Of a stretch of 64,000 bases of DNA, positions 52,813 to 61,253 are shown piece by piece. Source of the DNA: Escherichia coli (lineage in GTDB: Bacteria > Pseudomonadota > Gammaproteobacteria > Enterobacterales > Enterobacteriaceae); the NCBI RefSeq assembly GCF_024502345.1, contig NZ_JALDNN010000001.1. The stretch is one strand, 5' to 3'. A program made the position numbers and the translations under genes. Each line of letters begins with the position of its first letter. The stretch's first letter is position 1. A model generated the notes under the pieces. That model saw only the letters and a program-made list of their open reading frames with translations. It ran no database searches and was not told the origin of the DNA.

Positions 52813-53082
52813 TTATTCAAGATAGTCAAGTATGTTTTTTATATTGTCAATTAAGGCGACATGCAGGTCAGGGTCATCACATTCATCTGAATGGCAATAG
52901 GAAATATGTTGAAGTATAATTCTTTTTTTGAATTCACTAACTGTACACTCCAACTCATACACCGACCGTACGATATCAATACAAGGTTCATCATCGATTA
53001 AAAAATCCTGCATTTTATTATACTTATCAGTCAGATCTTCTATCATAGAAATTAATACGGGGTCATTAACTAACATTGGCAT
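52813..53082 (-). CDS. hypothetical small protein
   Basis: About 89 codons from MPMLVNDPVLISMIEDL with upstream AGGAGA; downstream of and co-oriented with the AraC-family gene. Confidence 0.4.
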   Translation of the reverse strand: MPMLVNDPVLISMIEDLTDKYNKMQDFLIDDEPCIDIVRSVYELECTVSEFKKRIILQHISYCHSDECDDPDLHVALIDNIKNILDYLE

Positions 53083-53488
53083 ATCTCTCCTCATAATCTG
53101 AAAGTAAAGATGGACACAGCGCTGATAAATTCCAATTCCCTTGCTTGCGGTACCGACCGGGAGGAAGATGAAACTTGTTTTTAAAAGCTCTCGTGAAAGT
53201 TTGTTGCGAATTAAAACCATACTGAAGTGCAATGTCTAGGACTGTTCTGGAAGTCAATTTCAGATCAATCGCAGCACATGATAATCGACGAGCACGAACA
53301 TATTCACCCAGCGCAACACCGGTCGTCTGTTTAAACAAACGTTGAAAATGCCATCGTGAATACCCAGACTTCTCAGCAATAAATTCTACTGGCAAGGTTG
53401 TATTCAATGAACTTTCAACCCACTGCAAAATATCTTTGACAACACTTTCAGAATATTTCCTGGTGTCCATTCTCTCCCCCCAAACCAT
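53066..53488 (-). CDS. AraC/XylS-family transcriptional regulator (MarA/SoxS-like)
   Basis: ORF with paired HTH segments LPVEFIAEKSGYSRWHFQRLFKQTTGVALGEY and DIALQYGFNSQQTFTRAFKNKF. Confidence 0.8.
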   Translation of the reverse strand: MVWGERMDTRKYSESVVKDILQWVESSLNTTLPVEFIAEKSGYSRWHFQRLFKQTTGVALGEYVRARRLSCAAIDLKLTSRTVLDIALQYGFNSQQTFTRAFKNKFHLPPGRYRKQGNWNLSALCPSLLSDYEERYANVS

Positions 53489-53562
53489 ATTCTATGAATA
53501 TATTCAAACCAGAATACGGTCTCTGAGTCTGTCATCCATGAAGAACTCAGGGACCCAACTCT

Positions 53563-59840: not shown

Positions 59841-60845
59841 ATGTCACAATCACATGATCACGAGCATGACCATACTCCAGCAGTAACCAGTGCAAACGAG
59901 CGTAAAGTCCTTATCTCCTTCCTCATGATATTCACATTTATGGTGGTCGAAGCTGTTGGAGGGATACTTTCTGGCTCATTAGCATTGCTGGCAGATGCAG
60001 GCCACATGCTTACAGATGCAGTAGCTTTGGCGCTGGCTTATGCGGCATTCCGTTTTGGCCGTCGAGCTGCTGATAGCAAACGAACCTTTGGATATTTGCG
60101 ATTTGAAGTCATCGCGGGATTCTTTAATGCCCTGACACTCTTCGCTATTGTGGCGTGGATTGCATATGAGGCATGGGAAAGGTTACAAGCTCCACCAATT
60201 ATACTGGCAGGCCCAATGCTGATCGTTGCCATTGCAGGATTGTTGGTCAACATATTGGTATTATGGATCATGACCCGTGGTGAGACCGATCATGTTAATG
60301 TCAAAGGTGCTATTTTACATGTGATGGGTGATCTATTGGGTTCTGTTGGCGCTATTGTCGCCGCTATTGTCATTTACTACACGGGCTGGACACCGATTGA
60401 CCCAATACTTTCCGTTCTTGTCGCAGCACTGGTTTTACGTAGTGCCTGGAAATTATTAGCAAAATCGCTGCACATCCTGTTAGAAGGAGCGCCTGAAGAT
60501 GCCTCCCCAGACAAGGTGGAACAGAGACTAATCAGTTCTGTTAAGGGCTTAGCAGCCGTAAGTCATATTCATGTCTGGCAAATAACCTCAGGTCGGACGA
60601 TGGCAACACTGGAAGTAAGAGCCAAGGAAGATGTGGACGTAAAAGACGTTGTGAAGCTTGTAAAACAAGAACTTTATGAGCAGTTCAAAATAGAACATGC
60701 AACTGTGGGAATCGACTGGAATTACGATCAAAACGATAATACATGCAGCCTTTCACCGACAAAACTGCGTAACGAACACGAACACGAACACGAACACGAA
60801 CACGGAAAAAAGCATAACCATTCTAGTCCAGGCCACAAACATTAA
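59841..60845 (+). CDS. cation diffusion facilitator transporter (CzcD/ZitB-like)
   Basis: 334-aa ORF with His-rich termini (SHDHEHDH; HEHEHEHEH) and six predicted transmembrane segments. Confidence 0.85.
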   Translation: MSQSHDHEHDHTPAVTSANERKVLISFLMIFTFMVVEAVGGILSGSLALLADAGHMLTDAVALALAYAAFRFGRRAADSKRTFGYLRFEVIAGFFNALTLFAIVAWIAYEAWERLQAPPIILAGPMLIVAIAGLLVNILVLWIMTRGETDHVNVKGAILHVMGDLLGSVGAIVAAIVIYYTGWTPIDPILSVLVAALVLRSAWKLLAKSLHILLEGAPEDASPDKVEQRLISSVKGLAAVSHIHVWQITSGRTMATLEVRAKEDVDVKDVVKLVKQELYEQFKIEHATVGIDWNYDQNDNTCSLSPTKLRNEHEHEHEHEHGKKHNHSSPGHKH

Positions 60846-60890
60846 TCAGGCCTCTGGTGATGCACTATCAATTTAGGAGGGAGAATCATA

Positions 60891-61253
60891 ATGTCCAGCA
60901 CATCAGATTGCGGCAACATACAAGACTGTTCCGCGACAGATCATGTCGCGGAGCCAGATCTATCAATGCTCTCGCAAAACGACATTGGGCAACTTTCCGA
61001 GATTTTCCATCTACTGGGGGACCAGTCAAGACTACGAATCCTGCTTTACTGTATGCGTGGTTCGGTCTCTGTAGGCGACATTGCTGAGTCGCTCCAGTTA
61101 TCACAATCTCTGGTCAGTCATCATCTGAGGTTGTTACGAAGTGCAAGGCTTGTTCGCGGAGAGAGAAAGGGTAAGTACATATTTTATAGCATAATGGATC
61201 ACCATGTAAGTCATGTTCTTCAGGACATGGTATTTCACATAGCTGAAGAATAA
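60891..61253 (+). CDS. ArsR/SmtB-family metalloregulatory repressor
   Basis: 120-aa ORF with HTH segment GDIAESLQLSQSLVSHHLRLLRSARLV. Confidence 0.75.
   Translation: MSSTSDCGNIQDCSATDHVAEPDLSMLSQNDIGQLSEIFHLLGDQSRLRILLYCMRGSVSVGDIAESLQLSQSLVSHHLRLLRSARLVRGERKGKYIFYSIMDHHVSHVLQDMVFHIAEE

Follow-up and report, generated by a model that had tools for sequence, protein, structure and literature searches.

The region at 52813–61253 of the window (the whole 64,000-nt stretch of Escherichia coli DNA that was analysed) is very probably a horizontally acquired multi-metal efflux block of three sensor–exporter modules, which shares its sequence exactly with a segment conserved on IncFIB/IncHI1B megaplasmids and here lies in a tandem pheU island. 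The eight ORFs that the earlier note had listed there are all present and intact in an ORF check, and the family profiles agree with each of its calls. They comprise a His-rich ZntA/CadA-like ATPase (with CPC and DKTGT motifs) divergent from a MerR gene, a CopA-like ATPase with two GMTCASC motifs followed on the same strand by a CueR-like MerR gene, a CDF transporter described as His-rich (4 of the first 20 residues and 9 of the last 40 are His), an ArsR/SmtB repressor, an AraC regulator and a small ORF. The note also quoted the regulator sequence correctly (MNIGKA...AKMIRYYEQIGLIP), and this protein shares 63.4% identity with authentic GolS from Salmonella. The block is uncharacterised and ordinary for the known kinds to which it belongs. 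It is composed mostly of familiar copper- and zinc/cadmium-type export systems, and its sole unexplored element is one uncharacterised pair of regulators (Rob-like and CsoR-like). Each module was classified by the analysis and the mechanisms proposed below are those of the families involved, with metal specificities resting on motifs and homology at 38–79% identity to characterised proteins. A literature search by protein accession and by plasmid and metal-gene keywords found no paper describing the block.

Island setting, plasmid relatives and distribution

Three features define the island, namely the pheU tRNA, a 23-bp att repeat and an integrase. The pheU tRNA-Phe gene is located at 20145–20220, and the second, tandem pheU island ('island B') starts with an exact 23-bp repeat of the pheU 3′ end (46297–46319, plus strand; two matches in the repeat search versus none expected) and contains an integrase gene (46517–47782, plus strand; integrase domain E 7e-74). 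Inside this island the block adjoins IS1 and IS1222-like elements. The left junction is formed by an IS3-family (IS1222-like) element (51446–52595, plus strand) that matches IS3 transposase profiles, with an Rfam IS1222 frameshift element at 51676–51793 (156.6 bits). Identity to plasmids begins right after this element, at window position 52596 (query position 12597), and from there to the window end conjugative IncFIB/IncHI1B megaplasmids found in Klebsiella, Citrobacter and Raoultella match the sequence at 100% identity. The acquired segment continues to a right end outside the 64,000-nt window.

The block is no chance pattern, because all of it matches at least 16 sequenced plasmids at 100% identity over 8.9 kb; it is contiguous in many complete plasmids. 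A copy with ≥99.5% identity is found on 17 large plasmids, and the typing, read for two of them, was IncFIB/IncHI1B, MOBH and conjugative. The exact proteins of the block were found in several further genera, including Enterobacter, and also in E. coli. In an exact-sequence look-up that covered four proteins (the small ORF, the AraC-like protein and both pumps), each was present on 1,000 or more Enterobacterales contigs. Among 5,426 complete E. coli genomes the block occurs in only three, in two cases on a plasmid, and the only other chromosomal copy (EH09-18-41) has its GolT-like gene interrupted by an IS3 insertion. The GC content of the block is 45.5%, versus 51.0% for the core. The proposal in the earlier note that the segment was acquired and is atypical of E. 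coli is supported by this rarity, the plasmid identity, the GC content and the location in an IS-bounded tandem pheU island.

When the block is compared with plasmid p35, all substitutions fall within 52596–56171 and none within 56172–61253, a pattern that may be counted in support of modularity. The diverged part gives way to the identical part near the convergent gap at 56593–56681 described below. The metagenomic locus L008 was considered as a diverged copy for dN/dS analysis and rejected, being ≥99.9% identical, different at one end only and devoid of a selection signal.

Three sensor–exporter modules

The exporter of the cad module is an 831-aa P1B-2 (Zn/Cd/Pb-type) P-type ATPase (53563–56058, minus strand; TIGR01512 score 507.9, cut-off 313.5), which contains all the motifs of its class: the transmembrane-site CPC at residue 487, DKTGT at 531, N(x7)K (NISLALGIK) at 785 and DxG (ADVG) at 813. 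Its N-terminus is rich in histidine (26 of the first 140 residues), and its HMA domain has DCPVEE in place of CxxC. Among the matches listed, the pump is 60–71% identical to those of Burkholderiales and Pseudomonas, and a divergent cadR-like gene is present upstream in 75 of 80 related pumps. A genome-contig scan identified no donor lineage for the pump, the best identity among the matches listed being 71% (Burkholderiales, Pseudomonas). A predicted MerR-type promoter/operator of the pump, TTGACC-[CTCTAGTTAGATTAGGGTC]-TTTAAT (56091–56121, minus strand), was read directly from the sequence. Its 19-bp spacer contains the dyad GACCCT...AGGGTC, an arrangement that is a hallmark of the MerR family (PMC3431237), and the same architecture (TTGACC-N19-TTTAAT with the dyad) is conserved in the diverged loci L014 and L010.

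The divergent gene (56140–56592, plus strand) encodes a 150-aa CadR/PbrR-type MerR regulator for divalent metals, whose best PDB matches are Pseudomonas putida CadR (E 4e-36) and PbrR691 (E 5e-36). It narrowly misses the TIGR02047 cut-off (147.3 versus 151.45). The three metal-binding cysteines of CadR/PbrR-type sensors are present as Cys78, Cys113 and Cys122, the loop being C-x8-C, and the promoter is divergent with a 19-bp spacer. As in its relatives, the regulator would bind the dyad and, when occupied by Cd, Zn or Pb, would activate the divergent ATPase, which would pump the divalent metal out of the cytoplasm. The P. putida cadA/cadR and Cupriavidus metallidurans pbrR/pbrA systems are likewise MerR/P1B-2 divergons that share a 19-bp-spacer promoter with a dyad, and the window regulator finds its best structural matches in their CadR and PbrR691. 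The loop length of the window regulator is PbrR-like (C-x8-C) and unlike that of CadR. The window system further differs from both in a regulator just below the family cut-off, in the unusually long His-rich N-terminus of the pump and in the Rob-like and CsoR-like genes that follow it. The gap between the two convergent MerR genes (56593–56681) contains strong hairpins (MFE −30.3 kcal/mol, z = −2.97) and a terminator-like site at 56665–56682, and is likely a bidirectional terminator parting the cad and gol-like modules.

The second exporter is an 831-aa P1B-1 (Cu/Ag/Au-type) P-type ATPase of the GolT family (57160–59655, minus strand; TIGR01511 score 586, cut-off 397). Motifs of the P1B-1 (Cu/Ag) class are found at residues 468 (CPC), 775 (YN(x4)P, as YNAALIP) and 804 (M(x2)SS, as MALSS), and the two N-terminal HMA domains carry CxxC (GMTCASC at residues 22 and 89). 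The pump is 78.8% identical to Salmonella GolT, and relatives closer than GolT (83–93%) occur in many Pseudomonadota, where they are annotated as copper pumps. The gene of its sensor, a 154-aa GolS/CueR-type MerR protein for monovalent metals (56682–57146, minus strand; TIGR02044 score 167.4, cut-off 147.4), starts 13 nt after the pump gene on the same strand. This protein is 42.1% identical to E. coli CueR, aligns gap-free to the CueR structure 1Q05 and has the Ser77, Cys112 and Cys120 of a CueR-type monovalent sensor with a 7-residue loop, AGDERVE. A predicted PgolTS-like MerR promoter/operator, TTGACC-[TTCCCACGATGGTAAGCCT]-TAAGGT (59692–59722, minus strand; 19-bp spacer), was recognised by its match to Salmonella PgolTS, to which it is identical at 26 of 31 positions, compared with 21/31 for PgolB and 20/31 for E. 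coli PcopA. The two genes would form an operon for a Cu(I)/Ag(I)/Au(I) pump followed by its own sensor, autoregulated from this promoter.

The resemblance to golTS, which the earlier note had pointed out, holds against the real Salmonella sequences of pump, sensor and promoter, and it is a resemblance at the family level. In the gold/copper locus of Salmonella enterica (golTSB-gesABC), as in the window, the pump gene precedes the MerR gene on one strand, the sensor has the same Ser77, Cys112 and Cys120, and the promoter has a 19-bp spacer. The window pump has two HMA domains and GolT one, and the window pair is located on mobile DNA beside cad and CDF modules, unlike Salmonella golTS. The locus also lacks the golB chaperone and the gesABC pump: neither the window nor the plasmid contexts gave a tblastn match to GolB, GesA or GesB at E ≤ 1e-3. 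Positions 113 and 118 of the GolS loop have specific roles. The gold specificity of GolS sits in this 7-residue metal-binding loop (PMC9733647), and here the window sensor differs at four of seven residues (AGDERVE versus AGDALPD), its loop being similar to the AGDERP[DN] and AGDDRPE of Cu(I)-annotated regulators that are 64–70% identical overall. An operon of a copper ATPase and cueR in Stenotrophomonas maltophilia has the gene order of the window, with a GolS-like regulator and a golTS-like promoter, and is induced by both Cu and Au (PMC7911910). Mobile 831-aa Cu(I) pumps of other Stenotrophomonas, Pseudomonas and Burkholderiales strains, widespread also in Enterobacter, are 83–93% identical to the window pump over its full length and have two HMA domains, and the regulators of the S. 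maltophilia operon and the mobile pumps are 64–70% identical to that of the window, which has Val in the loop where they have Pro.

A true gold-resistance system as in Salmonella, with an Au(I)-specific sensor, would account for the identities to GolT and GolS, for an operator nearer to PgolTS than to PcopA and for the label 'Au+-exporting ATPase' given to the pump by some pipelines. However, gold specificity is not supported, because the sensor loop shares just three of seven residues with GolS, golB and gesABC are absent and the nearer, widespread relatives of the pump are annotated as copper pumps; the Stenotrophomonas homologue, moreover, answers to both metals. We therefore regard a gold system as very unlikely and copper as most likely the physiological inducer of the operon. 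The label 'Cu/Au-type' in the earlier note is better replaced by 'monovalent-metal, probably copper'.

The third module consists of a 334-aa ZitB/CzcD-like CDF transporter (59841–60845, plus strand; TIGR01297 score 276.9, cut-off 82) and a 120-aa ArsR/SmtB-family repressor (60891–61253, plus strand; NF033788 score 85.7, cut-off 55). The transporter matches PF01545 (E 6e-44) and has the HD-HD site of Zn-type CDFs (HMLTD at residue 55 and HVMGD at 160); it scores below the ZitB equivalog (331 versus 408), and its best PDB matches are ZnT-type CDFs. The repressor carries an α5 site of the D-x-H-x10-H-x2-E/H type (Asp103-His105-His116-Glu119, DHHVSHVLQDMVFHIAE at residue 103), and its best PDB matches, with which the α5 ligands align, are SmtB (E 5e-19) and CzrA (E 5e-17). 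A 12-2-12 imperfect inverted repeat read directly over the CDF promoter, TTTACATGAACA-CA-TATTCATATGTT (59775–59800, plus strand), is the predicted operator of the repressor and is similar to SmtB/ArsR 12-2-12 sites in the literature, for example AATACCTGAACA-GA-TGTTCAAGTATT (PMC8790569). The repressor would sit on this operator until binding of Zn (or Co or Cd) releases it and frees expression of the CDF antiporter. Staphylococcus aureus czrAB and Synechococcus smtB are similar in having an α5 repressor with all four ligands and a 12-2-12 operator over the promoter, and czrAB also in having a CDF as the regulated exporter. In the window, by contrast, the CDF gene precedes the repressor gene, Cys61 of the SmtB α3N site is absent, and identity to SmtB and CzrA is about 35–40%, as estimated from alignments.

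A Rob/MarA-like and a CsoR-like gene behind the P1B-2 pump

The AraC regulator and the small ORF of the earlier note are real, and what it missed is their Rob/MarA/SoxS-type and CsoR-like nature. The former (53066–53470, minus strand) encodes a putative stand-alone DNA-binding activator of 134 aa that matches PF12833 and PF00165. Its best NCBIfam matches are all under the cut-off (RobA 168.8 versus 380, RamA 128.2 versus 180, SoxS 116.4 versus 174 and MarA 111.9 versus 202), and its best PDB matches are Rob, RamA, MarA and SoxS. The double helix-turn-helix domain is 40–51% identical to three of these activators (Rob N-terminal domain 51%, MarA 42%, SoxS 40%), and the helix-3 and helix-6 recognition positions (W40, Q43, R44, S88-Q-Q-T and R94) are invariant.

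The small gene (52813–53082, minus strand; 89 aa, with most homologues starting at Met3) has a 17-nt overlap with the AraC-like gene upstream of it. Its product falls below the gathering cut-off of PF02583 (18.1 versus 22.8 bits; E 0.0037). The top five PDB matches of its family profile are all deposited as CsoR (E 0.0017–0.03), two of them being Streptococcus pneumoniae CstR by title. The AlphaFold2 model (pLDDT 85.7) has three helices, and all top 18 Foldseek matches are CsoR, FrmR, InrS or CstR. Cys34, His59 and Cys63, a Cys...His-x3-Cys triad at CsoR spacing, are invariant among homologues down to 28% identity. From profile, model and ligands together we infer a divergent CsoR-family protein. 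It shares the three-helix fold and the triad with CsoR, RcnR and FrmR and differs from them in being acidic (pI 4.25), in lacking the basic α1 motif and in scoring under the Pfam cut-off. Four of the six substitutions between this ORF and its p35 counterpart are non-synonymous, a tiny sample.

The two genes sit behind the Cd/Zn pump, and the 92-nt gap between the pump and AraC-like genes contains a hairpin that is not significant (z = −1.5), no U-tract and no detectable terminator. Cotranscription of both genes with the upstream pump is probable. If the three genes formed one metal-inducible operon tying metal sensing to marbox control, then the CadR-type regulator, on sensing Cd, Zn or Pb, would induce the MarA/Rob-type activator as well. 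This plasmid-borne protein could then act on host marbox promoters such as that of acrAB-tolC, and the acidic CsoR-like protein might serve as a metal-binding partner or modulator rather than as a classical repressor. We hold this linkage to be unlikely. A marbox consensus search (at least 13 of 14 specified positions) found no site near the AraC-like gene, across 52596–56200, upstream of the plasmid lpxC or upstream of the RND operon of L014, which has its own MerR-type 19-bp-spacer promoter. Neither the small protein nor a close relative of the AraC-like protein was present in any of the 80 P1B-2-related loci among the matches listed, and PADLOC defence-system profiles matched neither protein.

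The block beside the native systems of E. coli

The native copA/cueR and zntA/zntR systems of E. coli belong to the same protein families as the window modules and follow the same MerR activation logic, and shared family membership is all that speaks for reading the two pumps as duplicated or misassembled native copies. The earlier note had named native orthology as the finding that would count against acquisition; the pumps are only 38.2% identical to K-12 ZntA and 38.6% identical to CopA, which refutes it. Their scores are far under the E. coli equivalog cut-offs (NF008262 628 versus 1005 and NF033775 558 versus 1240 for ZntA; NF007952 739.5 versus 1316 for CopA), the native loci are elsewhere on the chromosome, and an identical block is contiguous in many complete plasmids. 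In addition, pumps and regulators together are just 38–42% identical to the native ones, PcopA matches the window operator at 20 of 31 positions, and native copA and zntA are unlinked from their regulators, unlike the window modules. The probability of native copies is practically nil. A passive cargo is a more serious rival to an active efflux block, in which case the genes would be intact and contribute little in E. coli, with poorly used promoters or with native CopA/CueO/Cus and ZntA/ZitB already covering the same metals. The rarity of the block in E. coli and the IS3-split GolT-like gene in EH09-18-41 fit such a view, as does the functional overlap of GolT and CopA in Salmonella (PMC2919089). 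In the window, by contrast, all eight ORFs and the predicted promoters and operators are intact, the MerR and ArsR regulators are self-contained with sigma-70-type promoters, and the near-invariant sequence across many hosts (at least 1,000 contigs) argues for maintained function. A passive cargo is thus unlikely, and an active block would add Cu/Ag and Zn/Cd/Pb export through its three modules on top of native copA/cueR and zntA/zntR.

The region records an IS-associated move of a megaplasmid metal-resistance block into a tRNA island of the E. coli chromosome, which bears on how copper and zinc on farms and in clinics co-select resistance plasmids and islands. A golTS-type copper/gold module, usually seen as specific to Salmonella, circulates on conjugative plasmids in Klebsiella, Citrobacter and Raoultella. 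The Rob-like and CsoR-like pair would be worth experiment if it links metal sensing to efflux regulation; were that so, megaplasmids spreading among clinical Enterobacterales would tie multidrug efflux directly to metal exposure at the regulatory level.

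Gene content and plasmid origin of the metal-efflux block

The eight open reading frames described in the earlier note at 52813–61253 were all found and are all intact, and each family call was backed by family profiles. They encode a small protein (52813–53082, minus strand), an AraC-family protein (53066–53470, minus), a P1B-2 ATPase of the Cd/Zn/Pb type (53563–56058, minus), a CadR/PbrR-type MerR regulator (56140–56592, plus), a CueR-type MerR regulator (56682–57146, minus), a copper-type P1B-1 ATPase (57160–59655, minus), a CDF transporter (59841–60845, plus) and an ArsR/SmtB repressor (60891–61253, plus). 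The motifs quoted in the same note are genuine, both pumps containing CPC and DKTGT and the copper-type pump having GMTCASC twice, as are the His-rich features, with 26 histidines in residues 1–140 of the P1B-2 pump and His-rich termini of the CDF transporter. The scenario named there as refuting acquisition, in which the pumps are copies of the native E. coli zntA and copA, fails: the pumps are only 38.2% identical to K-12 ZntA and 38.6% identical to K-12 CopA, and their scores fall far under the E. coli equivalog cut-offs, which rules it out.

The window opens with 20 kb of typical E. coli chromosome (frd-groEL-aspA-dcuA-dsbD), shared at 99.2% identity with many strains, and a tRNA-Phe gene (pheU) is located at 20145–20220. 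A repeat search revealed a perfect 23-bp copy of the pheU 3′ end at 46297–46319 (chance expectation zero), with an integrase gene downstream (46517–47782). This repeat divides island A (20221–46319) from island B, which carries the efflux block and begins with its own integrase, so island B is the second of two tandem pheU islands. Up to ∼51380, its proximal part is 93–97% identical to islands in other E. coli chromosomes and contains the integrase, a phosphoethanolamine-transferase-like gene and an outer-membrane protein gene. The former (48104–49603, minus strand, 499 aa) matches the CptA and EptA profiles only weakly (106.9 bits; the cut-off is 404) and is no obvious mcr; the latter (49763–50503, minus strand, 246 aa), just ahead of an IS1 fragment, encodes a beta-barrel protein with a weak likeness to the Adr adhesin family. 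The IS1 transposase fragment (50953–51330) is followed by an IS3-family element (51446–52595) whose IS1222-type frameshift signal is intact (Rfam RF00383, 156.6 bits, 51676–51793).

Plasmid-identical DNA begins directly after the IS3-family element: everything from 52596 to the end of the window matches plasmid pMB18183_1 of E. coli strain 44 at 100% identity. The block is present at ≥99.5% identity on seventeen large plasmids (213–477 kb) of Klebsiella, Citrobacter, Raoultella and E. coli, and the two of these that were inspected were typed as IncFIB/IncHI1B, MOBH and conjugative. It occurs in 3 of 5,426 complete E. coli genomes, twice on a plasmid and once in the chromosome (EH09-18-41); in this copy, the only chromosomal one in E. 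coli besides that of the window, the GolT-like pump gene is split by an IS3-family insertion that cuts off the N-terminal HMA part (locus L002, 19561–23308). Four proteins were looked up as exact sequences (the small protein, the AraC-like protein and both pumps), and each occurs on 1,000 or more contigs across the Enterobacterales. The GC content of the block is 45.5%, compared with 51.0% for the core. The view of the cluster as acquired is thus supported: it is a plasmid-derived, multi-metal efflux cluster, atypical of the E. coli core and built of sensor-exporter modules of known kinds.

On the plasmids, the block extends leftwards to an lpxC paralogue, a second cueR, a molybdopterin oxidoreductase, def and oprD (plasmid and EH09-18-41 contexts L001, 18513–19901; L002, 5602–14901; L098, 1–2901). 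This part, from lpxC to oprD, is missing in the window, where an IS element takes its place. The second cueR-like gene adjoins the large molybdopterin oxidoreductase gene, and the second lpxC encodes a zinc enzyme; Enterobacter cloacae-complex loci (L010) carry a diverged lpxC, 70% identical, alongside a homologue of the small protein. To the right of the block are an 82-aa ORF (61638–61886) and a gene for an AAA_13 ATPase (62167–63939, minus strand) that runs off the window end and matches the PADLOC candidate defence family PDC-S06 (E 1e-236). The N-terminal part of this ATPase appears interrupted in the window, and the identical plasmid annotates the same gene as frameshifted. In a comparison with the Klebsiella aerogenes plasmid p35, all substitutions fall within 52596–56171, the cad half, and none in 56172–61253; a strongly structured convergent gap (56593–56681) divides the two halves. 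At least two units that differ in their history have thus been joined to form the block.

The cad and CDF modules

The P1B-2 pump has the signature residues CPC, N(x7)K and DxG, and is 60–71% identical to Burkholderiales and Pseudomonas pumps among the matches listed, where a CadR homologue lies divergently upstream of the pump in 75 of 80 loci. Its HMA domain (residues 143–200) has DCPVEE in place of the usual CxxC metal-binding motif and follows a His-rich segment, ∼100 residues long, that contains HEGHN repeats. The cad regulator matches the structures of P. putida CadR and C. metallidurans PbrR691 equally (E about 4e-36), with Cys78, Cys113, Cys122 and a loop of PbrR length. The intergenic promoter, TTGACC-CTCTAGTTAGATTAGGGTC-TTTAAT, has a 19-bp spacer with a dyad, a hallmark of the MerR family (PMC3431237), and is kept in two diverged loci.

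The CDF transporter carries an HD-HD transport site. For the ArsR/SmtB repressor, the best alignments are with SmtB and CzrA, and it has the full set of four α5 ligands (Asp103, His105, His116 and Glu119). Its predicted operator, a 12-2-12 imperfect inverted repeat (TTTACATGAACA-CA-TATTCATATGTT) overlapping the CDF promoter, resembles published SmtB/ArsR sites (PMC8790569).

Metal specificity of the golTS-like module

The resemblance to Salmonella golTS put forward in the earlier note proved correct when the module was compared with a retrieved Salmonella gol locus (L003; gesAB and golT-golS-golB). The copper-type pump is 78.8% identical to GolT (749 residues) versus 38.6% to K-12 CopA, the regulator is 63.4% identical to GolS versus 42.1% to K-12 CueR, and the 31-nt promoter/operator (TTGACC-N19-TAAGGT) matches PgolTS at 26/31 positions versus 20/31 for K-12 PcopA. 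The regulator also keeps Ser77, Cys112 and Cys120. However, the gold specificity of GolS resides in a seven-residue metal-binding loop (PMC9733647), and the regulator loop, AGDERVE, agrees with that of GolS, AGDALPD, at only 3/7 residues. It is instead similar to the AGDERP[DN] and AGDDRPE loops of Beta- and Gammaproteobacterial regulators annotated as Cu(I)-responsive, which overall are as close or closer to the window regulator (64–70% identity). Salmonella GolT has one HMA domain, whereas the window pump has two, and full-length pumps with two HMA domains and 83–93% identity are widespread in Enterobacter, Salmonella, P. aeruginosa, Stenotrophomonas and Burkholderiales. In tblastn searches with GolB, GesA and GesB as queries (E ≤ 1e-3), golB and gesAB were not found in the window and plasmid contexts searched. 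In Stenotrophomonas, an operon whose genes are arranged in the same order is induced by Cu as well as by Au (PMC7911910). Judged from sequence, the golTS-like features point to a broad family rather than to the gold system in particular. From the loop, the pump relatives, the missing golB and gesAB and the Stenotrophomonas precedent, the module is therefore interpreted as an exporter of monovalent metals, copper being the most probable substrate, under an autoregulated GolS/CueR-type sensor.

The AraC-like and CsoR-like gene pair

The AraC-family protein is a stand-alone DNA-binding domain of the Rob/MarA/SoxS type (51% identical to Rob-N, 42% to MarA and 40% to SoxS) with invariant recognition-helix positions. 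Its gene is overlapped by 17 nt by the small ORF, the product of which is a divergent CsoR-family protein. The match to the Pfam CsoR family is weak (18.1 bits; the cut-off is 22.8); a profile built from the few homologues is topped in the PDB only by entries deposited as CsoR. The AF2 model consists of three helices (pLDDT 85.7), and every one of the 18 top-ranking structural matches is a CsoR, FrmR, InrS or CstR protein. The putative metal ligands Cys34, His59 and Cys63 are retained without exception in homologues as distant as 28% identity; the protein is acidic (pI 4.25) and does not have the basic α1 motif of the aligned CsoR sequences.

An exhaustive search identified only three lineages of the small protein. 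In the most distant one, carried by rare Salmonella enterica isolates (L014), the order of MerR gene, divergent pump gene, AraC-like gene and overlapping small gene is kept, with identities to the window of 61%, 82%, 64% and 28%, respectively. There, the small gene is followed by an RND pump operon with its own MerR-type promoter (8268–8500; TTGACC-N19-TTAACC, perfect palindrome CTGAAGT-C-ACTTCAG). In the E. cloacae-complex loci (L010, 8473–10264), a CadR-type regulator with its 19-bp-spacer promoter is followed, ∼1 kb downstream, by the CsoR-like gene (55% identical), and between regulator and CsoR-like gene the pump and AraC-like genes are absent, with no remnants by tblastn. Neither the small protein nor a close AraC-like relative was present at any of the 80 Pseudomonas/Burkholderiales cadA loci among the matches listed. 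No terminator is evident between the P1B-2 pump gene and the AraC-like gene, so co-transcription of the pump, AraC-like and CsoR-like genes would be plausible. Marbox-like targets (at least 13 of 14 specified positions) were not found near the AraC-like gene, upstream of the plasmid lpxC, in 52596–56200 or upstream of the L014 RND operon.

No paper describing the block was found in our literature searches. The block is already plentiful in sequence databases and routinely annotated, and its sole unexplored feature is the conserved pair of Rob-like and CsoR-like genes behind the Cd/Zn pump.
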